Under the pieces are notes generated by a model. The model worked only from the letters and a program-made list of their open reading frames with translations, searched no databases and was not told the origin of the DNA. Positions 4,814 to 60,030 of a DNA stretch of 64,000 nt are shown one piece after another; the stretch's first letter is position 1; each line of letters opens with the position of its first letter. This DNA comes from Chlorobiaceae bacterium (GTDB lineage Bacteria > Bacteroidota > Chlorobiia > Chlorobiales > Chlorobiaceae): positions 6,624 to 70,623 of the forward strand of contig JAAXXK010000009.1 of the NCBI GenBank assembly GCA_013334525.1, written 5' to 3'. A program made the position numbers and the translations under genes.

Positions 4814-5691
4814 TCGTTGTGATACATTTTTCCTGACTGGTCGATTGCAAAGTACATCATGCCTGACTGCCTGAGATAGCTCAGCCCGTCAGACTCTTTG
4901 AGCATGGCTATTGTCGTGCAACTGCCGGCAGTTGTCGCCAGCGGCGCAAGAACGGTAATTGAGCGCCAGAAGCTTACCGGAAAACCTGAAACGGGGTTGA
5001 GGATATGGCAGTATCGCCGGCCACCCGTCTCAAAAAACCTCTCATAGTCACCGCTGGTAGCCAATCCCCCGCTGTAGATCGGTATTGAAGCGATCATTTT
5101 TTCGCTGTTGCGCGGGTCCTGAATTCCAATGATCCACGGTTCTCCGCCCGGCTTTGGTCCGATCACCCTGATATCGCCGGCAAGGTTCACGTAACCGCTG
5201 GTCACACCATTTTCAAGAAGTATTGTCGCAGCCGCATCAGCGGCATACTCCTTGCCGATTCCTCCGAAATCGAGCTGCATACCTTTGAGCTGCAGCCTGA
5301 TGGAGTTGCCTTTACGCTCAACCTGTTTCCAGCCGATCAGCTTCAGGAGAGGAAAGAGCGATTCTGGAGCGGGCACCTTGGCCTTGTCGAAATCCCATGC
5401 TCTCCTGAGAACGCCGGAGGTAATGTCAAAAAGTCCGTCGCTGCCCTGATAAAGCACATCAGCATAGTCCAGCAATGCCGAAGTCTCCTCGTCGCATTCC
5501 ACCCAATCGTCGGCAGCAGCTTCGTTGATTTTCGACACGACACTCCCGGCAAGATAACGGGAATACTTGCGTTCGATCCTTCCGACTTCCTTTATGCCGA
5601 CTGCCGATATCGCCTTCGCCTCTTTTTTTGCTGTAGAGGCAATCACGATCTCGCATCCGCAGCCCATTGCCCTGAATCCGATACGAAACAT
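4810..5691 (-). CDS. apbE: FAD:protein FMN transferase (ApbE family), no signal peptide or lipobox
   Basis: ApbE-like blocks FRAMGCGCEIVI, LDFGGIGKEYAAD, LATSGDYERFF and HILNP. Only about 50 nt separate the first Met from the upstream stop, so no leader peptide is possible. Confidence 0.85.
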   Translation of the reverse strand: MFRIGFRAMGCGCEIVIASTAKKEAKAISAVGIKEVGRIERKYSRYLAGSVVSKINEAAADDWVECDEETSALLDYADVLYQGSDGLFDITSGVLRRAWDFDKAKVPAPESLFPLLKLIGWKQVERKGNSIRLQLKGMQLDFGGIGKEYAADAAATILLENGVTSGYVNLAGDIRVIGPKPGGEPWIIGIQDPRNSEKMIASIPIYSGGLATSGDYERFFETGGRRYCHILNPVSGFPVSFWRSITVLAPLATTAGSCTTIAMLKESDGLSYLRQSGMMYFAIDQSGKMYHNE

Positions 5692-5741
5692 TGTAGGTCG
5701 TATTACATCATGGAAACCTCATCACAAAAACACAAGAACTA

Positions 5742-6962
5742 TCAGAATTTACGGGAAAATCCAAGCTGAAAGTCCCTGATGTTGAAGTAGGCTATCCCGG
5801 GGTCTCCATGACCATTGATGCACCAGTTGTAGCGCTGCTGGTATTGTTCATACCTGACATCGGCAAGCCAGCTGCGCCCGAGATCCCTGCTCACCTTCAG
5901 GCCGTAACTGAAAGCACCGAATGCCGACAGGCGCTGATCTTCGGAATAATATGAGGCCCCTGCCGGAGGTGGCGTAGGCGTTGCCGGATCATTCAACTCT
6001 GAGGCTCCGACAGGAACATAGAAATCGGCTGCGCTTTGCGAATGAAACCTGACAAGCGGCGTCAGCACCCATCCTTTCGACAACGGCTGGACATATTCGG
6101 CATCGAAAGTGTGCGCCCTTACACCGAAGGTATCAGAGTAATAACGGTAGGACAATCTGCCGGTTCCGTCAGTACCTTCAAAATGGTGGTTCCAGCGAGT
6201 CATGACCGTATAGATGTTACGATGGTCCGGCCTGAGGTCCGGTGCTTTATAGGGATCGGAGTAATAGCCGTGACCATGGGTATAAGTCAGGTTCAACTGG
6301 ACGATGTCGTTTTTGGAGACGACCTGGGTCAAGCCGACCAGCCCGGAATAGACTTTTTTCCTGCCTGTCGCAAGCTGAAATTTGGCAGGATCAACAGCTG
6401 GCTTGTCCAGGGCAATGGTATCTCTGTTATATGCGGTACCGAGACTTAAGGTAGTATTCTTGTCTTCAGTCGACAGCGTGCCGTTTAAAGAGAGACCTCT
6501 GGAGATGTAATCAGACTCCTGGGAGTAAGTTGCACCGGCACTCAGGGTGCCTCTCGAAAAATATCGGGTTACCGAAATATCCCCTGCATGACGAAGCTCT
6601 CCGGAAGCTCCTGAAGCAGCATCGTGTTTCGGAGAGCTGGATGGAAAACCGGAAGAGTGGTATAATGGGGAGGCGCCTGTAATTGAATCTTCAATGAAAG
6701 TTGCAGAGATGGACCACTTGCCGGCAATCGGCACCATGCCCATAAACGAGAGAGCGTTGACATTGATTCTGTCCCGCGTCATTCCAGCCGTTTGGGCAGT
6801 ATCGCCTGACTGGCTGTCGTGATAATTCAGATATTTGATGCCGACGATCGCCCGATCGGGCGCAGCTTCGGCATAGATGCTCTTTGGGGATGGCGAAAGC
6901 ATCGCTGCAGATGCAACAAGAATGCTGAAAACAGTAGATTTTGTTGTCAAACCCAAAGCCAT
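5742..6962 (-). CDS. outer-membrane beta-barrel protein, DUF3570-like
   Basis: Signal peptide, alternating beta-strand pattern and C-terminal ...QLGFSRKF (terminal Phe). The position between a DUF4266-like lipoprotein and ApbE matches a neighbourhood I recall for DUF3570. It contains DSITGAS and DAASGAS motifs. Confidence 0.65.
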   Translation of the reverse strand: MALGLTTKSTVFSILVASAAMLSPSPKSIYAEAAPDRAIVGIKYLNYHDSQSGDTAQTAGMTRDRINVNALSFMGMVPIAGKWSISATFIEDSITGASPLYHSSGFPSSSPKHDAASGASGELRHAGDISVTRYFSRGTLSAGATYSQESDYISRGLSLNGTLSTEDKNTTLSLGTAYNRDTIALDKPAVDPAKFQLATGRKKVYSGLVGLTQVVSKNDIVQLNLTYTHGHGYYSDPYKAPDLRPDHRNIYTVMTRWNHHFEGTDGTGRLSYRYYSDTFGVRAHTFDAEYVQPLSKGWVLTPLVRFHSQSAADFYVPVGASELNDPATPTPPPAGASYYSEDQRLSAFGAFSYGLKVSRDLGRSWLADVRYEQYQQRYNWCINGHGDPGIAYFNIRDFQLGFSRKF

Positions 6963-7000
6963 ACGTCCGATCCCTTAATGATTATTTCGCAGATATCGCA

Positions 7001-7231
7001 TCAATTACATCCGCAACCGCCACCGCCAACCCCGGCTCCTCCTGAAGCAGCCTCCTTGCTACCGTAGATATGCTCGGAATATCCGCTATCAAGCCTGTCG
7101 CCTTCGAAAGTCATCTCAGGTTTGGCCAGGTTCTGCTTTTCCCAGGGCTTGACGCTGGAACATCCAGAGAGGGTTGAGATCATCAACAGAAACAGGGCCG
7201 ATACCCAGGATAGAAAAATCATTATTTTCAT
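7001..7231 (-). CDS. small lipoprotein, DUF4266-like, with Gly-rich GGGGCGCN C-terminus
   Basis: Lipobox LSGC after a hydrophobic leader. 76 aa with a C-terminal GGAGVGGGGCGCN tail. The start overlaps the stop of the upstream tlpA-like gene. Confidence 0.65.
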   Translation of the reverse strand: MKIMIFLSWVSALFLLMISTLSGCSSVKPWEKQNLAKPEMTFEGDRLDSGYSEHIYGSKEAASGGAGVGGGGCGCN

Positions 7232-7717
7232 CGCTTATCCTCCAAAGCTGCCTTGATACTGTTTTCAAGTTCCTCCCTGTCGGACTCCCTGAATCCTTGG
7301 TGCTGTAATAGAATCCGGCCATTCCTGTCGATCAGGAAACTTGTCGGCATACCTTTTTCACTGTAACCACGAGCATTTTCTCCCTTCGAATCGAATGCAA
7401 CCGTAAAATGAGCAGGGGTTTGCGCCAGAAACTTTTTGGCATCATCTGTTTTTGCATCAAGGTTGATGCCGATAACCTTAAATCCTTTTGATCTGTATTT
7501 TTCCTGCATCTGGTTTATCCAGCCGAAAGACTGAGGGGCCACACCATGAAGCCCAGAAATCCAGATAGATAACCTCGCCGGCATTAGCTGAGAGGTTGAC
7601 TACTCCATGGACACCGGGTAAAGAGAAATCAGGTGCCTTATCACCTTTCCCGAGGGCATAACTGTTGGAGCACAACCCAAGCGATACAATAATAGCAATA
7701 TAATACGCCCTGGGCAT
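7228..7717 (-). pseudogene. TlpA/ResA-family periplasmic thiol:disulfide oxidoreductase, frame disrupted inside the CxxC motif
   Basis: Frame A (7478..7717) encodes a signal peptide and ...YLDFWASWCGPS, then nonsense. Frame B (7228..7584) continues ...QSFGWINQMQEKYRSKGFKVIGINLD... to a normal thioredoxin-fold C-terminus. The junction is near 7530-7535 (tggtgtggcccc-t-cagtctttc). Confidence 0.7.
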
Positions 7718-8100: not shown

Positions 8101-8141
8101 AAAAAAAAACCATGAACCAGCGATTATGCCGGTTCATGGTT
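8101..8141 (-). terminator. rho-independent terminator after the blue-copper gene
   Basis: On the minus strand: aaccatgaacc-ggcataatcgct-ggttcatggtt followed by T9. Confidence 0.8.
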
Positions 8142-8167
8142 TATAGACAATCAGCTTTTAATGCCGC

Positions 8168-8761
8168 TTACTTTGCCATTTTGAGGGCTACAGTTGCTGT
8201 GCCACCATCGGCTACGGTAACTGTGGTTTTGCCTTGTGGTTTCAGCTTCTCGCTCCATGCCGTGATTTCGTAGGTACCGGCAGGAACGTTGGGGATAGAG
8301 AATTTTCCGTCTGCGCCGGTTACAGCATAAGCATTGCTGTCAACAACAACGACATAACCGGACATTTCAGAATGGACATTACAGAGAAGGTTTACAACGC
8401 ATGACTTGTCAAACACAACTGATTTTGTCATGCCGGGATTGTATGTGCCAAGGTTAAACTTCTTGCAGACATCGGCAGAAAAGATGTTGTGGTTAACCTT
8501 GTCGCTGTTCTTGAAATCCACACTGGAACCAGTCGGAACAGCAAGTACATGAGGTATAAATACAAGATTTTTCTGGTCTACTTCAGCTTTTTTCGGCGTA
8601 ATCGGGCCCTTGACACCCTTGAGGTAGACTACCACATCTTTTTTGTATTTCGGAATAGCAACATCGACCGTACCGGTTACCGTGCCGGCACAAAAAGCAT
8701 TCGTTGAAACTAATCCTAAGCCAGCTGCAATAATGGCAGTTTTCAATACTTTACTTTTCAT
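8168..8761 (-). CDS. type-1 (blue) copper cupredoxin fused to a CarboxypepD_reg-like Ig domain, periplasmic
   Basis: Signal peptide. Candidate T1Cu ligands are His91 (DKVNHNIF) and Cys127-x2-His130-x2-Met133 (LLCNVHSEMSGYVVVV), an amicyanin-like spacing. C-terminal GADGKFSIPNVPAGTYEITAW. AAGGAG SD present. Confidence 0.7.
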   Translation of the reverse strand: MKSKVLKTAIIAAGLGLVSTNAFCAGTVTGTVDVAIPKYKKDVVVYLKGVKGPITPKKAEVDQKNLVFIPHVLAVPTGSSVDFKNSDKVNHNIFSADVCKKFNLGTYNPGMTKSVVFDKSCVVNLLCNVHSEMSGYVVVVDSNAYAVTGADGKFSIPNVPAGTYEITAWSEKLKPQGKTTVTVADGGTATVALKMAK

Positions 8762-8989
8762 TCTTCACTCCTTGCTGTTGATGTTAGAATAACGGTAAAG
8801 GAATACTCCTGTACACGCTTTTTGATAAATAAAAGATAAGCAAATACGGACATCCGGTCACAATTCAACTATAGCTTCGTACTTCATGGAATCATAGTGT
8901 GGGAATCGGAAACAACCTCCTCCCCCTTTTACCTATGACGTCATTATGTAACAAAACTATCGTTTCATTGAGTTCCTTGGTTTACAACA

Positions 8990-9442
8990 TCATTTTGAAA
9001 AAGTTTTGATATAGGCAACAAGACATTCAATCTCGTCACTTTCAAATGTCTTTCCCCAGGGAGGACACATGTTCGATTTCCCGACTGAAGCAGAGCCCCC
9101 GGTGATAGAGCGGGTCAAAGCTTCATCTGTCATCGTTTTCATGAAAGCCTTATCCGTAAAATTTGCAGGTGTAGGCTGCAATGAAGATCCATAGTACTGA
9201 CCTGTTCCGTCACCACTCTCTCCATGGCATACACCACAGTAGCGGGAAAAGAGTCGTTTGCCTTCCTTTATATCGAAAGGAAGATTGACATTTGCGTCAG
9301 CTATTGCTTTCAATGAATCTGCGCCTGCGCTTGTTGCGTCGGCTTTACCTTTTACCGGCTGCTTACCGCACCCCGCGAGCATAAGCGCGGGGATTACGGC
9401 GAGCAGGGCGTATTTGCTGAATGTTACTTTTGTTTTCATCAC
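8990..9442 (-). CDS. monohaem class I c-type cytochrome, lipoprotein
   Basis: Lipobox LMLAGCGK and a single CGVCHGESG haem motif. The start overlaps the stop of the octahaem gene by 4 nt. Confidence 0.8.
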   Translation of the reverse strand: MMKTKVTFSKYALLAVIPALMLAGCGKQPVKGKADATSAGADSLKAIADANVNLPFDIKEGKRLFSRYCGVCHGESGDGTGQYYGSSLQPTPANFTDKAFMKTMTDEALTRSITGGSASVGKSNMCPPWGKTFESDEIECLVAYIKTFSK

Positions 9443-12057
9443 TTGGCACTGATTTTCAGGGTCATCAAAAAGTTTGTCAACAGTACTCTCTCACGTTCAG
9501 TGAAGCCATAATTCGGTTCGACGATATCCGGCTTGTACTTTCTCGGATTCTCCAGATGCTTGAAGATAAATCCGGGCAAAAGGCGATTGCCGACATTGGA
9601 AAGGTTAGGACCTACAGCACCACCATCCGTACCGAGCTGGTGACAGCTCCTGCATCCCTTGTCATCATAAATCTTCTTGCCTTGAGCAATCTGTTCAGGC
9701 ATTGCTACGTCGGCAATTACAGGAATCTTCGTCGGGATATCGCTCGTAACCAGTTCCTGCTGGAAGTAGTTGACAACAACATCAACATCAGACCTGTTGG
9801 TATCTTCGACCTTCTGCGTGCCGAGGTTGAACTTAGGCATGGTGACCTTCGCAGGCGTCTTGCCCATGCTCAATCCAAGCTTCGGCATCTGCTGAAGCAA
9901 TGGACGAATCATGTCAGGATTTGCAAGGAAGTTACGAATCCAGCTCTCCTGCAGCTTGCTTCCTGCCAGCGAAAGATCAGGAGCGTAATCAGCACCGATG
10001 CCCTTGATTGTATGGCAGTTGGTGCACTTCACATCAGCAATAACCTTTGCGAAATCACCTGTGAATTTATAGCCCTGGACACCGGCCATTTTGTCGAGTT
10101 CCTGACGAGACGGCACCATGAACCTTACCGGCGCATTGCTGTCGGTAAAGCCGTAAAGCACTGCAGACAGTTCATTGACTTCCGTTTCAGAGAGTCGGAA
10201 ATTAGGCATACGCAGGCCAAGACGAAATCCTCTTGGATCGCGAAGCTTCTGTTTTATGTAGCTCAGGCGATCGTTTGGCATCGATTTCTTCAGTTTACCA
10301 AAATCGAGCAGTTCGACGGGCTTGCTGCCGATAGACGAAAGCTCGGTACCGATCTTCTCACGCATTTCATCGCTTCTCAGGAAGGTAACCCCCTGGGCTT
10401 TCAGCGATGGAGCAACCTGTACCATCTCCATTCCGCGCATTTTATGGCATCCATAGCAACCATACTGCTGGACAAGATCCTTGCCCTTTTTGATTGATGC
10501 TGCCTGTATCTGCACCGGGGCGACATACTTGTTTTCAGATTCATCGTCTACATATTCGCTGGAGATATAGTCGACAAGGGCATTGATCTCCTGATCGGTA
10601 AATCTGAAACGAGGCATTTTCGTACCCGGGAAATACTTGTTCGGGTCCTTGATCCAGTTGAACAGCCAGGTCTTGTTGACTTTGCTGCCAACTTTGCTCA
10701 GGTCAGGCGCATATACCTTGGAATGGTCACCTCCTCGGCCTCCTGTTGCATGGCAAAGGTTGCATCGTGCCTGACTCCAGAGGGCTTTGCCCTGTTCGAC
10801 AAGTTTAGGATCGTTTTTGATATTGGCAGAATCAACGTCACGCCTGTCTGATCCTGACATGCTGAAAAGATAGTCGGCGATAGCTTCGGCCTGGTCCTGC
10901 GTAAAGAAGAACTTGGGCATACGTGCTGTCGAGAAGTATTTCTTAGGATCGAGCAACCAGTTCACAGCCCAGGTATAATTGACCTTTGTTCCTACCTGTG
11001 TCAGTTCAGGGCCTACATCACCAATGCCTTCATAACCGGGAATCTTGTGACAGCTGTAGCAGCCGTATTTTTTTACAAGCTCGGTATTTTTGGAAATTGT
11101 TTCAGCACCGCGAAGATTCTTGATGTCACCATGGCAGTTCAGGCATGAGGTCTGTGTCATGTCACCTTTGAGCATGGCTTCATCCCAGTACTTTACTTTA
11201 CCATGAGCTTTCTCGACGGTCGTTGTAGCACGGCCCTGACCACGATGGCAGTATGTACAACCGAACTTTCCAGGGTCGTGATGTCCGAGGTAGACTGAGG
11301 TCAGCGGATGCTTCGAATAAGGCTGCTTGGCCGAGGGCTGTTTTGACGACTCGATACCTATATGGCATGAGACGCAACGGTCAGCCTTGTCAACGTCCTT
11401 GATAAGGAACTGCTTGATCTCGATAGGAGCCTTCTCGTTATTGGCAATTTTCTCCTTTTTTTCTTCGAGGATTTTGTTAAGCTGTTCGATTTCTGCCTTG
11501 ATTGCAGGAATATTGCCCGCAATCTGGGCAATAGATTCCCTGATCGGCTCCTGTTTGACCTGAATATCCTTGCTCTTTTTGTCAATGGCATCAATCTGGA
11601 GCTGAAGTGCATCCATCTCCTTCTTGTACTCGGGCTTCTGGGTCCTGGTGAAGTAATACTCTGTTTCGAGATACTTGCCACGGACAGTCTGAAGCTGCTT
11701 CTGGCTTTCAGCGGCCTGCTTCTGAAGCTCTTCAAGCTGACGGTTCAACTGCTCGTACTTCTCACCAGCTCCCTTGCCTTTAAGTCCAGCTTCTGCTTTC
11801 TCAAGCTGAGCATTAAGGTCGGCGAGGCGTTTTGCGCCACCGCTTCTTTGAAATTCAAACTGCGCCTGCTTGTATTCCTTTACAAGCTGGTCGTGTTTCA
11901 GCGATTTGTACTCTTTCTGGTAGTGTTTCCATGGTCTCAGACCGAATTCGTCGTCCCAGATAACCCAGGCAGATAAAATCAACAAGACAACACTGAAAAA
12001 AGCAAAGAAATACGCTCTGTACGCTGAGCTGTTTTTATTCTCATTCGCCATAGTCAA
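9439..12057 (-). CDS. membrane-anchored octahaem c-type cytochrome with long coiled-coil stalk
   Basis: Eight CxxCH motifs: CVSCH, CTYCH, CLNCH, CYSCH, CNLCH, CYGCH, CTNCH, CRSCH. One N-terminal TM helix, then about 170 aa of heptad-like K/E/Q-rich sequence. The last five haems sit in tandem class-I-like repeats (C..CH...L..VG.K......W.....P). Confidence 0.85.
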   Translation of the reverse strand: MTMANENKNSSAYRAYFFAFFSVVLLILSAWVIWDDEFGLRPWKHYQKEYKSLKHDQLVKEYKQAQFEFQRSGGAKRLADLNAQLEKAEAGLKGKGAGEKYEQLNRQLEELQKQAAESQKQLQTVRGKYLETEYYFTRTQKPEYKKEMDALQLQIDAIDKKSKDIQVKQEPIRESIAQIAGNIPAIKAEIEQLNKILEEKKEKIANNEKAPIEIKQFLIKDVDKADRCVSCHIGIESSKQPSAKQPYSKHPLTSVYLGHHDPGKFGCTYCHRGQGRATTTVEKAHGKVKYWDEAMLKGDMTQTSCLNCHGDIKNLRGAETISKNTELVKKYGCYSCHKIPGYEGIGDVGPELTQVGTKVNYTWAVNWLLDPKKYFSTARMPKFFFTQDQAEAIADYLFSMSGSDRRDVDSANIKNDPKLVEQGKALWSQARCNLCHATGGRGGDHSKVYAPDLSKVGSKVNKTWLFNWIKDPNKYFPGTKMPRFRFTDQEINALVDYISSEYVDDESENKYVAPVQIQAASIKKGKDLVQQYGCYGCHKMRGMEMVQVAPSLKAQGVTFLRSDEMREKIGTELSSIGSKPVELLDFGKLKKSMPNDRLSYIKQKLRDPRGFRLGLRMPNFRLSETEVNELSAVLYGFTDSNAPVRFMVPSRQELDKMAGVQGYKFTGDFAKVIADVKCTNCHTIKGIGADYAPDLSLAGSKLQESWIRNFLANPDMIRPLLQQMPKLGLSMGKTPAKVTMPKFNLGTQKVEDTNRSDVDVVVNYFQQELVTSDIPTKIPVIADVAMPEQIAQGKKIYDDKGCRSCHQLGTDGGAVGPNLSNVGNRLLPGFIFKHLENPRKYKPDIVEPNYGFTERERVLLTNFLMTLKISAK

Positions 12058-12103
12058 CTGAATTTTTGATGGGCAATTACAGTACCTGAAATGAATCCGA
12101 GCA

Positions 12104-12988
12104 TCACACGTTGAACCAGGGAGTTATCCAGACATATTTGATAAGGAAAACCAACCTGAGTATCATCTTTATCGGTATAGACATCATGGTGATGAAGAGA
12201 AAGACAATAGTGACATAACGAATCATGCCCAACTGCTGAAGTAATTCAGGATTCTTCTTCTGCCAGTATTTGTATGGCCAGACCATTCCGCCGACCATAT
12301 AAACCCCCACAACTATCGCTCCAATGATGAAACCTGCAAGAGAGCGAGATTCAACACCTACAAGATTTGAAAGATCTCTCGTAGGCTCAAAAACCACCCG
12401 ATGGGCATCCCACTCCTGCCATGGCCAGTACCACAACCATCCCGGTCCCCTGTCGAAAACGCCGATGACAATCAACAAGAGCCAAAGGATGAAAAAGCCG
12501 AACGAGAAGATAATGATCGAATATTTCCTCTCGGAAAAGGTGTAGTAACCGTTTCCTTTCGGATTTGTGTCGATATAGGGAATCGCGATCAGACCAACAA
12601 CGATCAGTGACGGCAGCACAACGCCTGCAAGCCACGGATCAAAGTACACCAGCAATTCCTGAAGGCCAAGGAAATACCATGGCGCTTTTGCCGGGTTAGG
12701 CGTCAACGTCGGATTTGCAATCTCCTCAAGCGGAGCATCGACAACGATGGACCAGATGGTCAGGAAAAGCATGACAGCAAGAGAAATGAGAAGCTCTATA
12801 CGAACAAGAGGCTTGTAAGTATCTACATCCTGGTCATTTTCACCATCGACGGCGTAACCGGATGCTTTGAGCTTGTCGTTCTGAAAAGCCTGCTGAAAAG
12901 CCCATACCATGAAAAAGCTCACCATCAAGATCATGATCACGATGGCGATATTATCCGGCTGGGTAATGATTTCGATAAATGGGTTCAT
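12104..12988 (-). CDS. cytochrome b C-terminal / subunit-IV-like protein, extended (about 6 TM)
   Basis: Qo-loop-like motif KAPWYFLGLQELLVYF, cf. PEWYF of subunit IV / cytochrome b. The Met at 12988 (MNPFIEII) follows the cyt b stop by 14 nt. The track ORF extends spuriously to 13099. Confidence 0.75.
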   Translation of the reverse strand: MNPFIEIITQPDNIAIVIMILMVSFFMVWAFQQAFQNDKLKASGYAVDGENDQDVDTYKPLVRIELLISLAVMLFLTIWSIVVDAPLEEIANPTLTPNPAKAPWYFLGLQELLVYFDPWLAGVVLPSLIVVGLIAIPYIDTNPKGNGYYTFSERKYSIIIFSFGFFILWLLLIVIGVFDRGPGWLWYWPWQEWDAHRVVFEPTRDLSNLVGVESRSLAGFIIGAIVVGVYMVGGMVWPYKYWQKKNPELLQQLGMIRYVTIVFLFITMMSIPIKMILRLVFLIKYVWITPWFNV

Positions 12989-13002
12989 AAGTTCTTGCCC
13001 TG

Positions 13003-13770
13003 TCAGTGATTTTGAGGTCTTGAAATTCCACCGTCTTTTCTGACTCGCCAGAAATGGACAACCATTAAAACGGTTGCGATGAGCGGTATGGCGATGCAAT
13101 GCCAGATATATGATCTAAGCAGAGCGTTACCACCCACCGTTGCACCACCCAGCAGTGCGAAGCGAATATCATTGTAAGGCGTGATATGCAGATATTCACT
13201 GAACGGCCCCTGATAACCTAGAAGCGGAGTCGCAGCACCCATGTTGGTACCCACGGTGATAGCCCAGAATCCGAGCTGATCCCACGGCAGCAGGTAACCG
13301 GTAAAACTCAGCAGGAACGTCAGTACCAGCAAAATAACACCAATCCCCCAGTTAAACTGACGTGGAGCCTTGTAGGAGCCGGTCATGAAAACCCTGAACA
13401 TGTGGATCATCACGACGATAACCATAAAGTGGGCCCCCCACCGGTGCAGGTTCCTGGTTATGACGCCATAAGGAACCTGGAACTCCAGATCCTTCATGTC
13501 CGAGTATGCCTGGTCTACCGATGGGTGATAATAGAACATCAGCACCACGCCGGTAATGGTCAGGATTATGAACGCCAAAAACGTTATTCCGCCCATACCC
13601 CAGGTATATCTGAGCTTTACGGCGCTTTCGCGAACCTTCACGGGATGGAGGTGAAGAAAAACGTTGCCGAAAACGGCAAGGGCCCGATCCCTGACGTTAT
13701 CCCTGTAATCTCTTCTGAATACGGATTTCCATATCAGATTTTTTTTCACCTTGTTAAATAGATCGCTCAT
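13003..13770 (-). CDS. cytochrome b6-like (N-terminal four-helix) cytochrome b
   Basis: Bis-His haem ligand spacing in helix B ([17 protein letters not shown]-x13-H) and helix D ([18 protein letters not shown]-x14-H). LPWDQLGFW block present. Confidence 0.85.
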
Positions 13771-13800
13771 ACGGTGTACAATTTTGTTTTCTGAACAAAT

Positions 13801-14133
13801 TTATCTGTAGCCACGCAGCCGTTGCAATTGCTTTGCATATTCGGCGGGATCTTTTTTCGTGCCGTCAGCATTGACCATAATGATTGCGAACCAAGGGCAA
13901 TCAATGGCGCAGATATTACACCCGGTGCAGCGTTCATTGACGGTCGCGACCCCTTTGAAGTTCAGCTCAGAAGGCACGATCGTCACACAATTGACCGGAC
14001 AGACGTTGGCACAGATAGCGCAGCCAGTACAGAGGTCGATGTTGACCAATGCCAGCGCTCTTTTCCTCGCACCGGGCTGATTCTGCGATGCAGAAACGTC
14101 CTGGTCCTGAATGATCTCTTCGTTGGTATCCAT
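13801..14133 (-). CDS. 2[4Fe-4S] dicluster ferredoxin, no signal peptide
   Basis: Two CxxCxxCxxxCP motifs: CTGCAICANVCP and CTGCNICAIDCP. Located between the Rieske and cytochrome b genes. Confidence 0.85.
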   Translation of the reverse strand: MDTNEEIIQDQDVSASQNQPGARKRALALVNIDLCTGCAICANVCPVNCVTIVPSELNFKGVATVNERCTGCNICAIDCPWFAIIMVNADGTKKDPAEYAKQLQRLRGYR

Positions 14134-14166
14134 GTTACTCCACTGTTTCTTTTATCCTTGCCGACG

Positions 14167-14706
14167 TCATGCTTTCAGTAGGCTTTGCGGATAGACCTCA
14201 TTCGACTCCCTGCCAGGAATGCCGGGGAACTTGATGGTCTTGTCCACCAGAAGCTGTCCATCTTCAGCGATACTGATCTTGAAACGGTCCATCGGTCTTG
14301 GAGCCGGACCTTCGAAGTTCAGGCCTGTGATGTAGTAGCCACTGCCGTGACACGGGCATTTGAATTTTTTCTGCGATTCCAACCAGCTCGGTGTGCAACC
14401 AAGATGGGTACATTTGGATTCCATAGCAAAAAAGCGTCCGTCCTGGAGACGAATGATCCAGGTGCCGAACTCCCTCTGGTACTGCGAATTAACAACGCCT
14501 GGCGGGTAGTCGTTTGGAAACCCAACCTTGAACTGCGACGGCGGTTCGAATAGCACCCTCGGGAAAAAGAACCTTAAAAACGCGTAAGAGTTTATTGCGA
14601 GAAAGCCGGCAAGACTTCCCCATCCGACGCGCGTAAGAAATTGCCGCCTGTCTCCGGATACCTCTGGGCCTTTTCCGGATACGGGATTCTCATACTGATC
14701 CTGCAT
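14167..14706 (-). CDS. Rieske [2Fe-2S] protein with twin-arginine leader
   Basis: Box I CTHLGC, box II CPCHGS, and DRRQFLTRVG Tat-type motif plus an anchor helix. Confidence 0.9.
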   Translation of the reverse strand: MQDQYENPVSGKGPEVSGDRRQFLTRVGWGSLAGFLAINSYAFLRFFFPRVLFEPPSQFKVGFPNDYPPGVVNSQYQREFGTWIIRLQDGRFFAMESKCTHLGCTPSWLESQKKFKCPCHGSGYYITGLNFEGPAPRPMDRFKISIAEDGQLLVDKTIKFPGIPGRESNEVYPQSLLKA

Positions 14707-14831
14707 GGCAGATAGATTTTTCTTTCACTGAGACCATTTCTGAACTTGATACTGTTCCTTCGAAACACATACTTCGCGTGAAGATCGGAATGATTGGAGA
14801 ACCTGAAAGAATACTTAAACCCGCAGGCTCT

Positions 14832-14867
14832 CCAACAACACAACCTACACACACCACACACACAAAA
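14832..14867. repeat. CA/TG-rich low-complexity tract
   Basis: ccaacaacacaacctacacacaccacacacacaaaaa in the cyc2-Rieske spacer. Confidence 0.6.
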
Positions 14868-14888
14868 ATACATAATGTCACAACATGT

Positions 14889-14904
14889 GGATGCAATTGC
14901 ATCC
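14889..14904. promoter_or_regulatory. perfect 16-bp palindrome GGATGCAATTGCATCC upstream of the Rieske operon
   Basis: Read directly. Lies about 185 nt upstream of the Rieske start in a 289-nt spacer. May be an operator or an RNA hairpin. Confidence 0.4.
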
Positions 14905-14995
14905 GTAATACCACTCCATTCGATTACTACAATACCGCCTCCCTGCTCGAGAGGCGGCATGTATGACAATGGCTTTCGTTAAGCTACTGTCAGGC

Positions 14996-16264
14996 TCAGA
15001 ATGCGAAAGAGCCCTGGAGCGCGAACGTATTCGGAACGGTATCGCCAAGGGCGTTAGAACCAGAGGTACCAGGCCAGCGATGCCTGATCAGATTGGTGTA
15101 GGTCGCTGACACGTAGGCATTCGCCCTGAGATGGGCCGTCATTCCAAACGCAAGGCTGGGGCTGTTTGCGATAGCTGTACCATTCAAGCCTTTTGCGCCA
15201 CTCCTGAGGTTCGAGTAGGTAACGGTTGTCTGCAGCCATGGATAGACGAAGTAGATGGCGTTGACGCGGTAGTTATCGTATCCGAGATCGCCGTCCCTGC
15301 TGTACGCAGCACCAAGCGAGAGGTTGCTGTAGTTGCCTGTTACGTCGAAACCATAGATCTGGGTTTCACCCGCGTAGTTGCCAGTCATGATGCCTTTGTT
15401 CGCCGTCATGTATGTGGCGCCGAGTGCGATGTGGTTGTCGAGACCGACATACTCGTTGCCGTAGGTGCCGCCTGCACCGCTCAGCAGGCCTGCGCCGCCG
15501 ATCTTGTACTTGGCGTGGGCATAGACGATGTCAGTGAAGAGGTTTGTGTTGGCGGTGCCACCTTCAGCGATACCGACGTTAAGCTTGAAACCACCGCTCT
15601 TGCCGGTGATATATGAGAACTCAGCTCCGGTGCCCGGTGCCTGGAAGGTGCTGTTGTAGACCTGGATCTGGTTACCGAAGGTGAAGTCGGAGAAGCCGTT
15701 ACCCAGGGCAAGGTTTACGCCAGGGGCGAAAGACCAGATAACGTGACCAGTCGGAGCAGTGGTTGTGGAAAGGTTGTACTGGCCGAAAGCAGAAAGGTTG
15801 TCGCCGATCGTACCGCCGAAGAACATTGTCGAGGTGCTCAGGATGCCGGTACCGTTGTTGAAGGTCGATTTCGTCTTGACGGTATTGTTAACAGTTTTAA
15901 CCTCATCCGAATAGTTTACAAGCTGTCCCCTGAACCAGAATCCGAGGGGGACGTTTCCGGGGATGTCTGCCGGATAGGGAGATTCGGGAAATGTTTTTTT
16001 CCAGCCGTCAGAGCCCAGCTTCAACTGCTCCTGCTTCGACTTTTCTTCGTCTTCTCCACCTGGCCAGCGGTAGCCGTTGTTACGGAAAGCTTCACCGAAT
16101 GCGTTCCTGGTTGGGAATCCAGAGTGACAGGTATAACATGAGGTTCCATATTTACGGGCAAAAGCTGGCATAGCCGATGCATCCTGGCTCGGCAACAGCA
16201 TTGGCGCAGTACAAAGCGTCACAACGGAAGCAATAGTTAACTTTCTTCTCATAAAACTCTCCAT
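14996..16264 (-). CDS. cyc2: Cyc2-like fused monohaem cytochrome c - outer-membrane porin
   Basis: Signal peptide (...SQDASA). A single CYTCH lies within AFARKYGTSCYTCH, about 12 aa after the predicted cleavage site. About 370 aa of amphipathic beta-strand segments follow, ending ALQGSFAF. The true start may be the Met at 16252, which has GGAGAG upstream. Confidence 0.7.
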   Translation of the reverse strand: MESFMRRKLTIASVVTLCTAPMLLPSQDASAMPAFARKYGTSCYTCHSGFPTRNAFGEAFRNNGYRWPGGEDEEKSKQEQLKLGSDGWKKTFPESPYPADIPGNVPLGFWFRGQLVNYSDEVKTVNNTVKTKSTFNNGTGILSTSTMFFGGTIGDNLSAFGQYNLSTTTAPTGHVIWSFAPGVNLALGNGFSDFTFGNQIQVYNSTFQAPGTGAEFSYITGKSGGFKLNVGIAEGGTANTNLFTDIVYAHAKYKIGGAGLLSGAGGTYGNEYVGLDNHIALGATYMTANKGIMTGNYAGETQIYGFDVTGNYSNLSLGAAYSRDGDLGYDNYRVNAIYFVYPWLQTTVTYSNLRSGAKGLNGTAIANSPSLAFGMTAHLRANAYVSATYTNLIRHRWPGTSGSNALGDTVPNTFALQGSFAF

Positions 16265-16539: not shown

Positions 16540-17156
16540 ACAGCGCTCAACAGAAAACAGGCTTATCAATAACGCTGGCCTGATAAAACTAAAATCGGGA
16601 TTAATATAACCATATGAGCGCATTGTCATACAGTAGAGCAACCTAAAAAAAACATTTTCAATTCGACATAAAAGTCCCTCACCAGGCAGTTTAGACATTT
16701 AAGACAGCTGCCCGAAAAAGCCCCGGTTCACTTGGGTATGGGATCACCACTTAACCGCGAAGACCAAAAACCCCTCTCAGTGAACTCCGAGAGACAAAAA
16801 ACCGATGAAACGTGAAAAAGGCCAAAACAGTCGCTAGTGTAGATGCTACATCGTAGATCATAAGTCGAAAACCTCAGGGAAACCTGAGCTGGTTTCGGAC
16901 TTCGTTATCATGTTGATTTGTTGCAGTCAGTGGGTTGAAGCTGTGGCTAATAATATTCCCTGCTTCTCTGCTGCTACTTGGCCCATCTCAGTAATTTTAA
17001 CAAAATGTTTTCAAATATCCAAATCAAGGAACTCATATTTATTCTTATTCAAAAGAAGAACTGAAACTTTTTATCAAAATAAGCTCATCTGACGTAATTA
17101 AATGATGTAGATCGAATAATATACTCGCCATATACGCTACTTTGTGGCGTGAATCC

Positions 17157-17726: not shown

Positions 17727-19874
17727 TCAGAACGACTGGGTCATGCCGATCATGAACGAGCGCCCCTGGCCTGCAAGTGCATCAAAGTACAACGGCTTTC
17801 CGCTTGCCTCAAGAGACTGGTCATAGTTCACGCCTCCCAGGGGCAGGTAATAGAACTTGTCGAACAGGTTCATGACCCCCAAATCCAGCTTCAGGTTTTT
17901 ATACTGATATGCTGTACGGAGGTTGACCAATGCATATCCAGAAGTTTTCGGCTCCAGACGCAACGGTTCAATATTCGATTTTTTGTCGACTACCTGAACT
18001 TCCACGACATTCGTCCATCCTGATATCTGTTGCTCTATCGTCATCCTGAGATTCAACGGCATCTGGTGATAGAGGCTGTTGCCGGTATCCAGGTTTTTCC
18101 CATGAACATATCCAATCGTACCGCCAATCTTTCCGCTACCGAAACCACCGGATTTCCAAAGTGAGGTTTTGCCGGAGATATTGATCCCGTAAAGCGCAGC
18201 ATCCTGATTGACGAACCTCAGTATGTTACGGGTGCCTGAGGTGCTGGCACCGAAATACTCCACGCCAATGTAATCGTTGACATAAGTGTAAAACGGCGCG
18301 ACCTTTACCTCGTAATCTCTTTTGTCGCTGTCATGAAAATCCGCCGAGATGCTGATCGTATGCGCCACTTCAGGCTTGAGATCCGGGTTGCCAAGATAGC
18401 CGTTGCCATCACCGAACCATCCGAGCATGCCGCTGCACATCCACATGGTCGACCAGGCATAACGTTCGTAGAGATTTGGAGAACGGGTCTTGCGTGCATA
18501 ACCGAGTTCATAAGAGGCGGTTTTCGATGGTTCCAGCTTTGCCATTGCCGAGATATCCCAATTGCTGTCGGTGCGGCGACGATCCAGCAGGTTGAAAGCA
18601 TCCGAATCCCTTTTGTAGTTCGTGACCATCGGTGACATTCCATTACTGTCCTTGTATCCATGGACATCGCCAGTATCCATCCTGACCTGCTCGTTACGAA
18701 CGCCGACAATCGTTGTCAACTGGTCATTTGGCCGGGATTCCCATTCTGCAAATAACACAAACCGGTCACGTTCACCGTTATAGATGTTCAGGAAGGAATT
18801 GGGCGACATGGTCATGCTCCCTGCAACAGGAGGCCATAGGTCATCAAGGGTGAAGCGGTGGTATTCGTTGCCAATGCGCAACAGGCTGTTGGATGAAATC
18901 CTGAACTCAGGCTTGATCGAATAGCCGATGTTTATGCCTCTCGTTTCCATTGGCATGTGGGGCATTTTCAGGGGAAACTCCAGCTTTTCCCTGCCTGAGT
19001 CCATCTTGTGCCAGGTGTTTTGCCAGTAAGCGCTAGCGTCCAGCTTGCCCCAATCGTAGCTGGCCTTGTAACCCGCGTTGATAAATGACGCGTCGTTATC
19101 GATCATGTCCATCCACTGGTTTACGAAACCCTGGTCGGGAATCGACTGGTGCCCTGCCTTGACCGTAATGACGCCGCTGTCGGTTTTGGCTGCAAGCGTT
19201 AAGCCGAGGTTGTTCGATTCGTAATAGGTTGAGGTTACCCTGTTGCCGTGGCCGTCAAAGTAATCACTGGCACGGTCATGAGAGGCTGTCACGCCGAAAC
19301 TCAGGTTGTTGTTTGCGACGGAACTTGTAACCGAAACCCCTCTGGCATGGTTGTTGCTCCGATAGTATGATGATATACTGCCGTTTTGCACGACCTTTTT
19401 TCCATTTGAAGCGAATACCGGTGCTACCGATTCCACTACAATAGTGCCGCCGATGTTGTCGCCGCCCATGCTGACTGGCGTCACGCCGGCATTGACGCTG
19501 ATACTGCCCACATTGGACGGAGGCAGATAGGAGAGCGGCGGGTTCATGTGGTTCGCGCAGGCGGAGGTTATCTCCATGCAATCTACACAGACCATAAGCC
19601 GATCATCACCAAGGCCGTTGACTACCGGAAGGCTCGATACTCCGCCGCCTGTCTGAAGGCTTACTCCCGGTTCATCGCTGAGCAAGGCAGCTGTATCGCT
19701 GGTTTTCAGGCGCGTTGAAACCACCGGTTTCAACGATTTATCACTCTTTGCAGAAACGACTACTTCCGGCATTTGTACTTCTGCTGCCAGCACCGAAGGT
19801 GGTGTTGCTGCCATTGCAGTAAGCAACGCAGCAAGCGGCCAGAACCTTATTATAAATTCTTGTGATTTGTTCAT
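17727..19874 (-). CDS. TonB-dependent outer-membrane receptor, possibly copper-type (OprC/NosA-like)
   Basis: Signal peptide, plug start PEVVVSA and a C-terminal ...MIGMTQSF barrel signature. Cys/Met/His clusters CVDCMEITSACANHMNPPLSY and PLKMPHMPME. The Met at 19874 (MNKSQEF) is preferred over 19928. Confidence 0.8.
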   Translation of the reverse strand: MNKSQEFIIRFWPLAALLTAMAATPPSVLAAEVQMPEVVVSAKSDKSLKPVVSTRLKTSDTAALLSDEPGVSLQTGGGVSSLPVVNGLGDDRLMVCVDCMEITSACANHMNPPLSYLPPSNVGSISVNAGVTPVSMGGDNIGGTIVVESVAPVFASNGKKVVQNGSISSYYRSNNHARGVSVTSSVANNNLSFGVTASHDRASDYFDGHGNRVTSTYYESNNLGLTLAAKTDSGVITVKAGHQSIPDQGFVNQWMDMIDNDASFINAGYKASYDWGKLDASAYWQNTWHKMDSGREKLEFPLKMPHMPMETRGINIGYSIKPEFRISSNSLLRIGNEYHRFTLDDLWPPVAGSMTMSPNSFLNIYNGERDRFVLFAEWESRPNDQLTTIVGVRNEQVRMDTGDVHGYKDSNGMSPMVTNYKRDSDAFNLLDRRRTDSNWDISAMAKLEPSKTASYELGYARKTRSPNLYERYAWSTMWMCSGMLGWFGDGNGYLGNPDLKPEVAHTISISADFHDSDKRDYEVKVAPFYTYVNDYIGVEYFGASTSGTRNILRFVNQDAALYGINISGKTSLWKSGGFGSGKIGGTIGYVHGKNLDTGNSLYHQMPLNLRMTIEQQISGWTNVVEVQVVDKKSNIEPLRLEPKTSGYALVNLRTAYQYKNLKLDLGVMNLFDKFYYLPLGGVNYDQSLEASGKPLYFDALAGQGRSFMIGMTQSF

Positions 19875-19905
19875 GAGGTAACATTTATTCTTTGAAATAG
19901 TGAAG

Positions 19906-19931
19906 CTTGCGGCTGGAATTCCAGCCACAAG
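19906..19931 (-). promoter_or_regulatory. 11-bp stem-loop in the 222-nt leader of the receptor gene
   Basis: Minus-strand RNA cuuguggcugg-aauu-ccagccgcaag (one G-U pair), about 30 nt before the receptor ATG. Could be an attenuator or a processing site. Confidence 0.35.
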
Positions 19932-20096
19932 CCTTCCCTATCCGGCGCACGACCTGATTTGAACGGGTTCATCAGCGGGCGGTAAGTCTAATGCCTCGGT
20001 ATTGACAAATAGACACCACTGGACTGACGATCCATTAAATGCAAAGCTACCCGCGTGCGGGTTGCGGCGGAATGAATTGAACGATATGTTGAAACC

Positions 20097-20483: not shown

Positions 20484-20552
20484 TGAAAAGAGCTGACTTT
20501 AGATAAATACTTTGTCAAGGGAGACATATCACGGCTGTAATGTCAATCAATT

Positions 20553-20564
20553 TAACAATTGTTA
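20553..20564. promoter_or_regulatory. 12-bp perfect palindrome TAACAATTGTTA (copy 2)
   Basis: Lies in the divergent intergenic region between 20483 (receptor operon start) and 20664. Confidence 0.4.
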
Positions 20565-20663
20565 TCCAATTAACGGCAAGTGGCGGTAGCAAGAAATTGT
20601 TCAATATCGTACCTTGGCTACATCGTATCGTCTTACAACCAATATCTCAGGAAGGAGCCTCAA

Positions 20664-59763: not shown

Positions 59764-60030
59764 GGTGCGCTTTTGAAGGGTTAGCCTAGTTCTGAAATAT
59801 CCCGGGCAGTTGCATCTATTCGAGATATGTTTTTTTGAACTTTACCCATAGCCGCATTATAACCGGGCCAATGGTTGCATGGTATGATCGGCCAGGCCAT
59901 TTGAGCGTGCCTGTGTCAAATGCCCCTGAGCCCCCCTATCCTGAATTGTTTTGTTACACTCCCCGGTAAACAATAATTTCAGAGATTGACGTCGTGCCTT
60001 CCAATAACAACAGGTCAAGGAGAACACATT

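Follow-up and report, generated by a model that had tools for sequence, protein, structure and literature searches.

A Cyc2-led gene block with an atypical Rieske/cytochrome b complex in Chlorobia: a candidate route between the cell exterior and the menaquinone pool

The 64,000-nucleotide stretch of a Chlorobiaceae genome analyzed here (contig JAAXXK010000009.1 of assembly GCA_013334525.1; hereafter the window) carries a block of eight co-oriented open reading frames (ORFs) on its minus strand, in the order Cyc2–Rieske–ferredoxin (Fdx)–cytochrome b–subunit IV–octahaem–monohaem–cupredoxin (Cupr; Table 1). The block most likely encodes one electron-transfer chain that runs between the cell exterior and the menaquinone pool; we infer the unity of this chain, the potentials of its centres and its substrate. 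A single functional chain is supported by the fact that all of the parts are secreted or membrane redox proteins. Uptake of electrons from outside, with the Rieske/cytochrome b (bc) complex working in reverse, is the direction that we tentatively favour.

Why does such a block matter? The cyc2 gene is the genomic marker of photoferrotrophy in Chlorobia and is hence used in arguments about ancient iron-based photosynthesis. The block is a candidate route from Cyc2 to the photosynthetic chain, made up of eight proteins and an operator and common in uncultured freshwater Chlorobia; through it, a Cyc2 clade of its own is joined to a quinone-coupled complex of the APWY type, which has never been characterized. 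An enrichment culture that carries the block exists; thus, which way the electrons flow, what the substrate is and how the genes are regulated are directly testable.

Organization and Conservation of the Block

Gene families were assigned by Pfam and NCBIfam matches, and residue conservation was read from homologue alignments. An earlier, sequence-only reading of this DNA had described eight minus-strand genes with two larger internal gaps, 289 nt between cyc2 and the Rieske gene and 228 nt between the monohaem and Cupr genes; the ORF listing of the 6–19-kb region returns exactly these genes, coordinates and gaps. The strong terminator that it had placed after the copper-protein gene is found at 8142–8107, where a 15-bp stem with a T-run starts 26 nt past the Cupr stop codon; by a simple scan, neither the 289-nt nor the 228-nt gap holds a T-run terminator, and the one after the last gene is the sole one. 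Family matches, motifs and structural models likewise agree with the components that it had named: a Cyc2-like porin, an atypical Rieske/cytochrome b pair, a 2[4Fe-4S] protein, an octahaem cytochrome, a lipoprotein monohaem cytochrome c and a type-1 copper protein. Two points needed revision. The subunit-IV-like protein has about six transmembrane (TM) helices by hydropathy; the ORF start at 13099 is too early: alignment with 38 relatives places the true start at Met38 (12988). And while the eight genes are real, the functional extent of the block is probably wider than the limits drawn for it, reaching to the operator and to the DsbD-ApbE-DUF3570 cluster described below.

The stop codon of the octahaem gene and the start of the monohaem gene overlap by 4 nt. 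A G+C-rich 7-bp hairpin (CCGCCTC...GAGGCGG; 14935–14958, minus strand), which lacks a T-run, lies 38 nt past the cyc2 stop codon; it could be a transcript-stabilizing or attenuating structure that separates cyc2 from the downstream genes.

TABLE 1. Features of the block and its surroundings, with positions in the window.
Feature	Position	Strand	Details
Cyc2-family fused monohaem cytochrome-porin, clade A of Chlorobia	14996-16264	minus	422 aa, single CYTCH at residue 43
Rieske [2Fe-2S] subunit, bc/b6f type, predicted high potential	14167-14706	minus	PF00355
2[4Fe-4S] ferredoxin-like subunit	13801-14133	minus	110 aa, two CxxCxxCxxxCP motifs, Fer4 families
Cytochrome b N-terminal half, b6-like, 4 TM helices	13003-13770	minus	255 aa, PF00033 141 bits
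Subunit-IV-like protein/cytochrome b C-terminal half	ORF 12104-13099, corrected 12104-12988	minus	PF00032, 294 aa
Membrane-anchored octahaem c cytochrome with coiled-coil stalk	9439-12057	minus	872 aa, eight CXXCH
Lipoprotein monohaem class-I c cytochrome	8990-9442	minus	150 aa, LAGC lipobox, CGVCH at residue 69, PF13442/PF00034
Secreted type-1 copper cupredoxin (Cupr; copper binding predicted) with C-terminal CarboxypepD_reg (transthyretin-like) domain	8168-8761	minus	197 aa, PF00127, PF13620
Intrinsic terminator closing the block	8107-8142	minus	15-bp stem, 7 G-C pairs, 6-nt loop, then T-run
Palindromic operator GTAACAATTGTTAA	16527-16540		263 nt upstream of cyc2
DsbD-ApbE-DUF3570-DUF4266-thioredoxin-like cluster	2909-7717	minus	Pfam and NCBIfam matches

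How constant is this arrangement? A scan of the GTDB species representatives, matched on two peptide patterns that are invariant in the Cyc2 clades A and B defined below, returned 79 loci; a block without a clade-A Cyc2 would escape such a pattern-based scan. Among the clade-A copies with at least 40% identity to the window protein and at least 1.5 kb of downstream sequence, the Rieske gene comes directly next in 32 of 39, and a further three are separated from it only by the second member of a tandem cyc2 pair. The complete eight-gene order is present in 27 loci; because these are independent, the arrangement is far beyond chance. Its carriers are metagenome-assembled genomes (MAGs) of Chlorobiaceae/Chlorobiales, from lakes by their record titles (L227, L304, ELA, LacPavin), and one MAG of Chloroherpetonaceae; overall, the record titles assign the source MAGs largely to boreal, humic or ferruginous lakes. 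The nearest relative of the window is Chlorobaculum sp. SMAG_U13142, with identities of 86% for Cyc2, 99% for the Rieske protein and 97% for cytochrome b; the exact cytochrome b, Rieske and cupredoxin sequences stand in NCBI as NTW51611/15/17 under generic names.

The Cyc2 Cytochrome-Porin

The identification of the leading gene relies on a published motif and on the fold, since Pfam and NCBIfam searches with the 422-aa protein give no family match. A Cyc2 protein is diagnosed by AXPXFAR[Q/K][T/Y] just before CXXCH, has a PXL site four residues after it, and spans at least 365 aa with a 16-strand porin (Keffer et al., 2021). The protein encoded in the window begins with a hydrophobic N-terminus (a signal peptide) ending in ...DASA/MPAF, contains exactly one CXXCH, and reads A-M-P-A-F-A-R-K-Y, GTS, CYTCH, in line with this consensus; every Cyc2-like ORF that the motif search recovered has the same motif, all those at the head of a block among them. 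At the PXL site (CYTCH-SGF-P-T-R), a Pro stands at the right distance, with an Arg in the third position in place of the Leu. The AlphaFold2 (AF2) model, built with 50 homologues (predicted local distance difference test, pLDDT, 73; predicted template-modelling score, pTM, 0.75), contains a barrel of 16–18 strands from about residue 105 to the C-terminal Phe at 422, as the sequence-only reading had anticipated; its best Foldseek matches are 16-strand general porins (E 1e-11 to 1e-7), among them OprP (2o4v), on which Cyc2PV-1 was modelled. Confidence is low for the haem domain, and the position of any plug is not readable from the model. By the published sequence definition and the modelled fold, the 422-aa protein is a Cyc2-family cytochrome-porin, for which a role as Fe2+ oxidase is predicted; Fe2+ oxidation is the only activity shown for Cyc2, and Cyc2PV-1 of Mariprofundus has a midpoint potential (Em) of +208 mV (Keffer et al., 2021).

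Which Cyc2 is it? A profile search with the protein finds 2461 relatives; ten cluster look-ups among these return "hypothetical protein" in every case and give no placement in Cyc2 clusters 1–3. Within Chlorobia, the 79 loci and the window hold at least three Cyc2 lineages. Clade A, with 40–86% identity to the window protein and the motif PAFARKY.TSC.TCH, heads the block. Clade B, with 31–37% identity and the motif PVFARKYHTAC.TCH, is mostly solitary; in L051–L079, it is often located between genes for a 157-aa membrane protein and a LysE-like protein, with a 370-aa protein next, and clade-B genes share the upstream palindrome described below. The third lineage is the published type, in which a gene for a c5-family cytochrome lies directly upstream of cyc2 (Tsuji et al.); its representative here is a 440-aa protein in L035 (PAFSRQTGQSCAACH), which aligns to the window protein over 67 residues of the haem domain only, at 37% identity. 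In many of the Chlorobia MAGs, Cyc2 is present as two or three paralogues. No ORF with a haem motif is found within 890 nt upstream of cyc2 in the window, nor was a c5 cytochrome found upstream of the block cyc2 in L035 or beside the clade-B paralogues. Assignment of the window protein to the published cyc2-c5 type was rejected because it has no c5 neighbour and shares only 37% identity over 67 aa with that type. The sequence-only reading had asked whether the protein belongs with Cyc2: it does by the published definition, but in a clade separate from the published Chlorobia Cyc2. Two lineages can share one locus: in L035 (L227 enrichment S-6D), the published-type cyc2 and its c5 gene (18025–20034) follow directly downstream of the cupredoxin gene of the block. 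With at least three lineages that have different gene partners, it is unsafe to treat "cyc2" as a single trait.

The Rieske/Ferredoxin/Cytochrome b Unit

The Rieske protein has a Tat-type (twin-arginine translocation) RRQFL anchor at its N-terminus and both cluster-binding boxes, C99-T-H-L-G-C104 and C117-P-C-H-G-S122, with C99/H101 and C117/H120 as ligands and C104/C119 as the disulfide (conserved in 41 sequences). S122 and Y124 (CPCHGSGY) are conserved in 41 homologues; in Rieske proteins, such a Ser/Tyr pair predicts a potential of ~+300 mV (Baymann et al., 2012; Kao and Hunte, 2014), and the centre encoded in the window is thus predicted to be of high potential. The 110-aa product of the next gene matches Fer4_21 and related families and has no signal peptide; its gene is always located between the Rieske and cytochrome b genes (44 loci).

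Cytochrome b is encoded in two parts, a half of 255 aa with four helices and a half of 294 aa with ~6 predicted TM helices. Its haem ligands H109/H123 and H224/H239 are conserved, with 13 and 14 intervening residues as in b6-type proteins, and the best solved relatives in a PDB search are cytochromes b6 (E 1e-41). The helix-A position that would bind haem ci reads F-L-A-F, with an Ala for the Cys, so that the cysteine feature of b6f and the Firmicute b6c is not present. In the NCBIfam search, the N-terminal half is nearest to ExtP (260.9 bits, below the cut-off of 290) and the subunit-IV half to ExtQ (51.7 bits, below the cut-off of 150).

The quinol-oxidation (Qo) motif in subunit IV is APWY, within the stretch NPAKAPWYFLGLQE, which is invariant in 38 sequences. 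In Chlorobi, cytochrome b is unsplit and carries PEWY (Baymann et al., 2012; Kao and Hunte, 2014); the difference from canonical green-sulfur PetCB that the sequence-only reading had claimed is therefore borne out in both the split and the motif, and no canonical petCB is encoded inside the 64-kb window. The APWY clade is phylogenetically patchy (delta-Proteobacteria, Nitrospirales, Planctomycetes and others), has no characterized member, and is paired with mid-to-high-potential Rieske proteins; reverse operation from the high-potential side has been proposed for it (Kao and Hunte, 2014). The bc1 complex of Acidithiobacillus ferrooxidans also lacks the acidic residue, with PPWY as its Qo motif (Kao and Hunte, 2014).

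The Octahaem, Monohaem and Copper Proteins

The octahaem cytochrome is anchored by an N-terminal TM helix (residues 15–33), which is followed by ~170 residues with coiled-coil-type matches (SMC, Taxilin; residues ~45–215) and then by the haem-binding region. The eight CXXCH motifs are all retained across 37 homologues: those at 228, 267 and 305 are c7/c3-like, and those at 333, 432, 534, 678 and 802 are CcoO/class-I-like, the first four of these each with a conserved M-P-x-F/L methionine. Given its N-terminal anchor and the adjoining cytochrome b genes, the octahaem protein would be the obvious c1-equivalent of the Rieske/b complex.

Cupr matches PF00127 narrowly (22.2 bits, cut-off 21.2) and also PF13620. 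Of its copper ligands, H130 and M133 are present in 43/43 homologues and H91 and C127 in 40/43 each, with three sequences in either column having a non-ligand residue; the loop C-x2-H-x2-M is of the amicyanin type. The AF2 model is confident (pLDDT 90.4), and Foldseek places its middle domain closest to the Nmar_1307 cupredoxin, amicyanin, pseudoazurin and plastocyanin, with TM-scores to target of 0.72–0.77 for Nmar_1307, amicyanin and plastocyanin; the best PDB sequence match is 5fc9. Database names of the family range from "plastocyanin" to "methylamine utilization protein" and "carboxypeptidase regulatory-like". Judged by its modelled fold and its ligand set, Cupr is a genuine type-1 cupredoxin, with copper binding predicted. 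C99 and C121 each occur in 25/43 homologues; in the other 18, mostly Ala stands in place of C99 and Gly in place of C121. An optional disulfide is suggested by these equal counts and by the co-variation of the pair.

Distribution and Lateral Spread

Is the block confined to Chlorobiaceae? The same module is present in Chloroherpetonaceae (L050) and, rearranged, in Ignavibacteria (L076). In Glassbacteria (L086/L087, 67–6484), genes for a Cyc2-like protein (454 aa), Cupr and the bc operon all lie downstream of a type-II dimethyl sulfoxide (DMSO)-reductase-family enzyme; unclassified JGI metagenome contigs (L082/L083) combine two Cyc2 genes with the bc operon, Cupr, a 15-haem cytochrome and Trx-DUF4266-DUF3570; and a metagenome contig from ENA (L084, 1130–7543) has the bc operon without Cyc2, downstream of a molybdoenzyme set. 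Conversely, Cyc2-Cupr pairs without bc genes exist in several phyla (L032, L073, L077, L081), and in L080 two Cupr homologues are encoded just upstream of a Cyc2-like gene; by analogy, these pairs echo the logic of Cyc2 and rusticyanin. Cytochrome b is 73–75% identical among Chlorobia, Bacteroidetes and Glassbacteria, and the G+C content of the block is 0.45–0.52, against 0.54–0.58 in the region 20–30 kb away. Together, the cross-phylum spread, this identity and the lower G+C content indicate that the block is a laterally mobile functional module.

The molybdoenzyme set of L086/L087 and L084 comprises a 1149-aa molybdopterin subunit, an EB_dh haem subunit, an Fe-S subunit and a NarJ-like chaperone. 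In L082 (16046–18495), genes for a pentapeptide-repeat protein (295 aa) and the 15-haem c cytochrome (509 aa) are located between Cupr and Trx-DUF4266-DUF3570.

A Shared Operator and the DsbD-ApbE-DUF3570 Cluster

The palindrome upstream of cyc2 has the consensus TTAAC(A/G)ATTGTTAA (sequence form TTAACAATTGTTAA); the window contains two matches, where 0.14 are expected. The second copy (20552–20565) lies upstream of an operon that encodes p128, a TonB receptor and a Sel1 protein; the receptor is nearest to the haem and copper receptor families, with sub-threshold scores. Across 1.27 Mb of related loci (L001–L079), the palindrome occurs 118 times with at most two mismatches, and 80 of the 118 copies lie within 700 nt upstream of Cyc2 genes of clades A and B; hardly any of these cyc2 genes is without a copy in front of it. 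Others are found upstream of Cupr (seven loci), upstream of Trx-DUF4266-DUF3570 (five loci) and at the TonB-receptor operon (several). From this distribution, the palindrome would define a regulon for a putative binding factor. Comparison with Fur, Rex, OhrR and LacI-type boxes gave no convincing match.

The DsbD-ApbE-DUF3570 cluster comes after the block in most Chlorobia loci and also in L082/L083, and the DUF3570 protein of the window retains both [S/T]GA[S/T] motifs (TGAS and SGAS). Clusters of this type are flavinylation-associated extracytosolic electron-transfer systems, and DUF3570 of Chlorobium luteolum is flavinylated (Meheust et al., 2021); the cluster is a possible functional extension of the block.

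Direction of Electron Flow

How would the eight proteins work together? Cyc2 in the outer membrane would exchange electrons one at a time with a redox species dissolved outside the cell, Fe(II) being the most probable one; the secreted cupredoxin and the lipoprotein monohaem cytochrome c would ferry electrons through the periplasm; and the octahaem protein would serve the Rieske/b complex (split b, APWY, Ser/Tyr Rieske, 2[4Fe-4S] subunit) as its c1-equivalent. In the uptake direction, electrons from the donor would move downhill to the high-potential Rieske centre and then uphill to menaquinone, through a reversed Q cycle driven by the proton-motive force (pmf); from menaquinone, they would be usable by the ordinary PetCB/reaction-centre chain. 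This uptake route with a reversed bc complex is our tentative choice of direction, and we rate it as quite possible rather than probable. It is favoured because the periplasmic chain appears to be of high potential, and by the level of P840 (+240 mV), the proposal that APWY complexes run in reverse and the precedent of A. ferrooxidans. A high-potential chain is predicted from the Rieske S122/Y124 pair, the class-I haems with methionines, the blue copper site and the +208 mV of the PV-1 Cyc2; such a chain suits electron capture but poorly suits the reduction of ferric oxides, and simple delivery to the reaction centre is disfavoured as well. Synteny, the Cyc2-Cupr pairs, the shared operator and the presence of a c5-linked cyc2 beside the block in L035 lend further support to uptake, while the iron-rich or humic lake habitats and the cyc2-c5 pair beside the block in L035 suggest the link to Fe(II). 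The sequence-only reading had already proposed a conduit from outside to the quinone pool; cross-phylum synteny and the APWY-reverse proposal make this plausible, but the direction is what we infer.

The complex might instead run forward, which we consider possible but rather unlikely: Rieske/b would oxidize menaquinol and generate pmf, the octahaem, monohaem and cupredoxin proteins would feed the photo-oxidized reaction centre, and Cyc2 would add electrons from Fe(II) to this periplasmic pool. A cytoplasmic-side 2[4Fe-4S] subunit would, with no greater likelihood, return electrons from reaction-centre-reduced ferredoxin to the b haems and the quinone pool for cyclic flow and pmf, which a strictly linear path from Fe(II) to ferredoxin would not supply. 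Forward flow is the default direction of all characterized Rieske/b complexes; it would suit a ferredoxin-like gene that is invariably wedged between those for Rieske and cytochrome b, an octahaem/monohaem gene overlap that suggests a fixed donor pair, and the bc operons that follow a periplasmic-type molybdoenzyme in Glassbacteria and the related contig, since bc complexes normally feed such enzymes. However, a Ser/Tyr Rieske centre at ~+300 mV, by the motif rule, is above both P840 (+240 mV) and cytochrome cz, so that delivery would be unfavourable; APWY lacks the acid that accepts a proton in forward quinol oxidation; PetCB already does this job in green sulfur bacteria; and a cytoplasmic ferredoxin subunit is an assumption, with no ferredoxin fusion to cytochrome b in four longer proteins taken from the 120 homologues listed. 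Could electrons leave the cell instead? Menaquinol electrons would then pass through Rieske/b, the octahaem protein and the carriers to Cyc2 and on to an extracellular acceptor, for example Fe(III)-organic complexes, Mn oxides or humics. The cell might thereby conserve energy in the dark, dispose of electrons or acquire iron or copper by reduction, but we do not think such export likely. ExtP and ExtQ, the nearest curated families (261 and 52 bits), do belong to a Geobacter cluster that goes up with Fe(III) and is partly Fur-regulated, but both scores are under the equivalog cut-offs. The cyc2 operator is common to a haem/copper-type TonB receptor and to the DsbD-ApbE-DUF3570 system, which has been tied to iron reduction and assimilation (Meheust et al., 2021), and exchange with humics has been raised as an alternative role for Cyc2 (Tsuji et al.). 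Against this, known outward conduits are low-potential bis-His multihaem proteins, while most carriers here are class-I/CcoO-like (four with a conserved methionine) and, with the blue copper, would trap electrons above ferric oxides; moreover, Cyc2 has been shown only to oxidize Fe2+. To our knowledge, respiration is undescribed in green sulfur bacteria, which also counts against export.

All three directions presuppose that the genes belong together. We consider it very improbable that a genomic island simply carries cyc2, the bc operon and the Cupr gene along as separate units with no common function. The 289-nt and 228-nt gaps leave room for separate promoters, an operator lies directly upstream of Cupr in seven loci, which suggests regulation of its own, and both the bc operon without Cyc2 (L084) and Cyc2-Cupr pairs without bc genes exist. 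Yet order and orientation are kept in 27 loci despite Cyc2 identities to the window protein of 40–86% across the block-bearing loci, the linkage is rebuilt in other arrangements in other phyla, the internal gaps have no T-run terminator by the simple scan, and every part is a secreted or membrane redox protein that needs partners.

Several points weigh against uptake. Candidatus (Ca.) Chlorobium canadense L304-S-6D has the block at L041 and a further Cyc2-Cupr pair at L073; this organism, at pH 6.5–7 and after growth on sulfide, did not carry out light-dependent Fe(II) oxidation (Tsuji et al.). No cultured strain is the source of any of the 79 loci from the pattern-based scan, which included the species representatives of cultured photoferrotrophs. 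The 2[4Fe-4S] subunit may be either cytoplasmic or co-exported with the Rieske protein by the Tat system, and it has no evident role in uptake. In Glassbacteria, the module stands beside a type-II DMSO-reductase-family enzyme, and enzymes of this kind are usually fed by forward flow from quinol to cytochrome c. All of the potentials are predicted from motifs, and the notion that APWY means reverse operation is a proposal from the literature. Green sulfur bacteria reduce ferredoxin at the reaction centre and have no textbook need for uphill flow; PetCB would re-oxidize menaquinol made in this way, so that no net gain is apparent except with a donor that is unable to reach P840. The link to photoferrotrophy that the sequence-only reading had put up for testing is not supported: the block is present in Ca. 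Chlorobium canadense, which showed no Fe(II) oxidation, and no cultured photoferrotroph is represented among the 79 loci; the block does not track demonstrated photoferrotrophy.

When would a donor fail to reach P840? The Fe(OH)3/Fe2+ couple rises by ~177 mV for each pH unit lower; with E0 ~1.06 V and 100 µM Fe2+, textbook constants give a calculated potential of ~+0.06 V at pH 7 and ~+0.23 V at pH 6. In slightly acidic humic water, the couple would be near or above P840, direct oxidation by the reaction centre would be impossible, and a lift into the quinone pool would be needed. It is conceivable, though doubtful, that the block encodes an accessory complex that does this: Cyc2-fed and ferredoxin-linked, the Rieske/b complex would lift electrons from donors too oxidizing for the type-I reaction centre, such as Fe(II) at pH 6 or below, Mn(II) or humics. 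The lift would be powered by light-generated pmf or by confurcation, in which electrons from Rieske (~+300 mV) and ferredoxin (~-420 mV) would combine at a mean of ~-60 mV, matching menaquinone (-74 mV). If true, an accessory complex of this kind would widen the range of electron donors for green sulfur bacteria and would explain why cyc2 is frequent in Chlorobia that do not behave as classical photoferrotrophs.

Neighbouring Genes and Other Features

Between the Sel1 gene and cyc2, a ~230–270-nt non-coding stretch (16760–17030, minus strand) is 80–86% identical to three related MAGs, compared with 66–73% for the flanking proteins. It contains a promoter-like site (17021–16994) and a hairpin with a U-run (16794–16773), and RNAalifold predicts a closing stem with some compensatory pairs. 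A search of the stretch against Rfam gave no credible match, and its single-sequence fold (z = -1.1) is no better than that of shuffled sequences; we regard the stretch as a candidate for a small RNA or a leader.

The TlpA/thioredoxin-like gene of the DsbD-ApbE-DUF3570 cluster (7228–7717, minus strand) is spread over two frames and broken exactly at the WCGP(C) active-site motif, where a few bases seem to have been lost, either in the gene itself, which would then be a pseudogene, or through an error of assembly. Far from the block, a plus-strand gene (59986–60360) encodes a 124-aa secreted monohaem class-I cytochrome c, which resembles the soluble c-555 cytochrome known from green sulfur bacteria. 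At 39081–39563 on the minus strand lies a gene for a homologue of Hcp of type VI secretion (PF05638); several flanking ORFs have no family match.

Comparison With Known Systems

Has such a block been described before? A full-text literature search, with subscription-only papers outside its reach, turned up no account of a cyc2-Rieske/b block from Chlorobia; the 10-kb gene-context figure of Tsuji et al. must have included part of it for one genome, uncommented. The claim of the sequence-only reading that the linked unit resembles no characterized complex of green sulfur bacteria holds on both counts: no published description was found, and the features of PetCB are missing. Canonical PetC-PetB shares with the block a Rieske protein and a dihaem b core of the "green" b6-like lineage, but its b is unsplit, with seven helices and PEWY, it lacks a c subunit of its own, and its Rieske centre is of low to mid potential.

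With the Cyc2 family, as represented by A. ferrooxidans Cyc2 and Cyc2PV-1, the leading protein shares a signal peptide, a single N-terminal CXXCH, PXFAR[Q/K][T/Y], a length above 365 aa and a predicted porin of 16–18 strands; it differs from published Cyc2 proteins in forming a clade separate from the Chlorobia type, in having no c5 neighbour and P-T-R for PXL, and in heading a bc operon. The complex that follows resembles the APWY clade (Kao and Hunte, 2014), to which the G. metallireducens complex whose genes cluster with p-cresol methylhydroxylase belongs: both have APWY, a patchy distribution over many phyla and a Rieske protein of predicted high potential. Chlorobi are not among the phyla listed for that clade, however, and the partner there is a periplasmic dehydrogenase, here the outer-membrane Cyc2; the assignment of the block to the clade is by motif. 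The haloarchaeal cluster of halocyanin, Rieske and split b (Baymann et al., 2012) likewise lacks the haem-ci Cys, has a Ser/Tyr Rieske protein and keeps a type-1 copper protein alongside, but it is archaeal and has no porin-cytochrome, octahaem protein or ferredoxin subunit. In Geobacter sulfurreducens, extHIJKLMNOPQS similarly clusters porin genes with those for Rieske (ExtO), a split b (ExtP, ExtQ) and a lipoprotein cytochrome (ExtS); unlike the block, it encodes a haem-free ExtI porin, cytochromes with 10–12 haems, a rhodanese and a selenoprotein, has no cupredoxin or ferredoxin, and is associated with outward reduction.

The rus and petI operons of A. ferrooxidans share with the block Cyc2, a cupredoxin, c cytochromes and a bc complex without the acidic Qo residue (PPWY there, APWY here), and the petI complex takes electrons from Fe(II) uphill to quinone. 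There, the bc1 complex is a canonical three-subunit enzyme encoded in a separate operon, and the chain includes an aa3 oxidase and serves an aerobic acidophile. The phototroph of the block is anaerobic and neutrophilic, and its single block combines a split b, a ferredoxin subunit and an octahaem cytochrome, with no oxidase. Every component family is thus known already, as are systems of the same logic (rus/petI, ext, halocyanin-Rieske/b); what is new is the fixed combination of parts, the distinct Cyc2 clade in the lead, the prevalence in Chlorobia, an APWY complex in this phylum and the operator.

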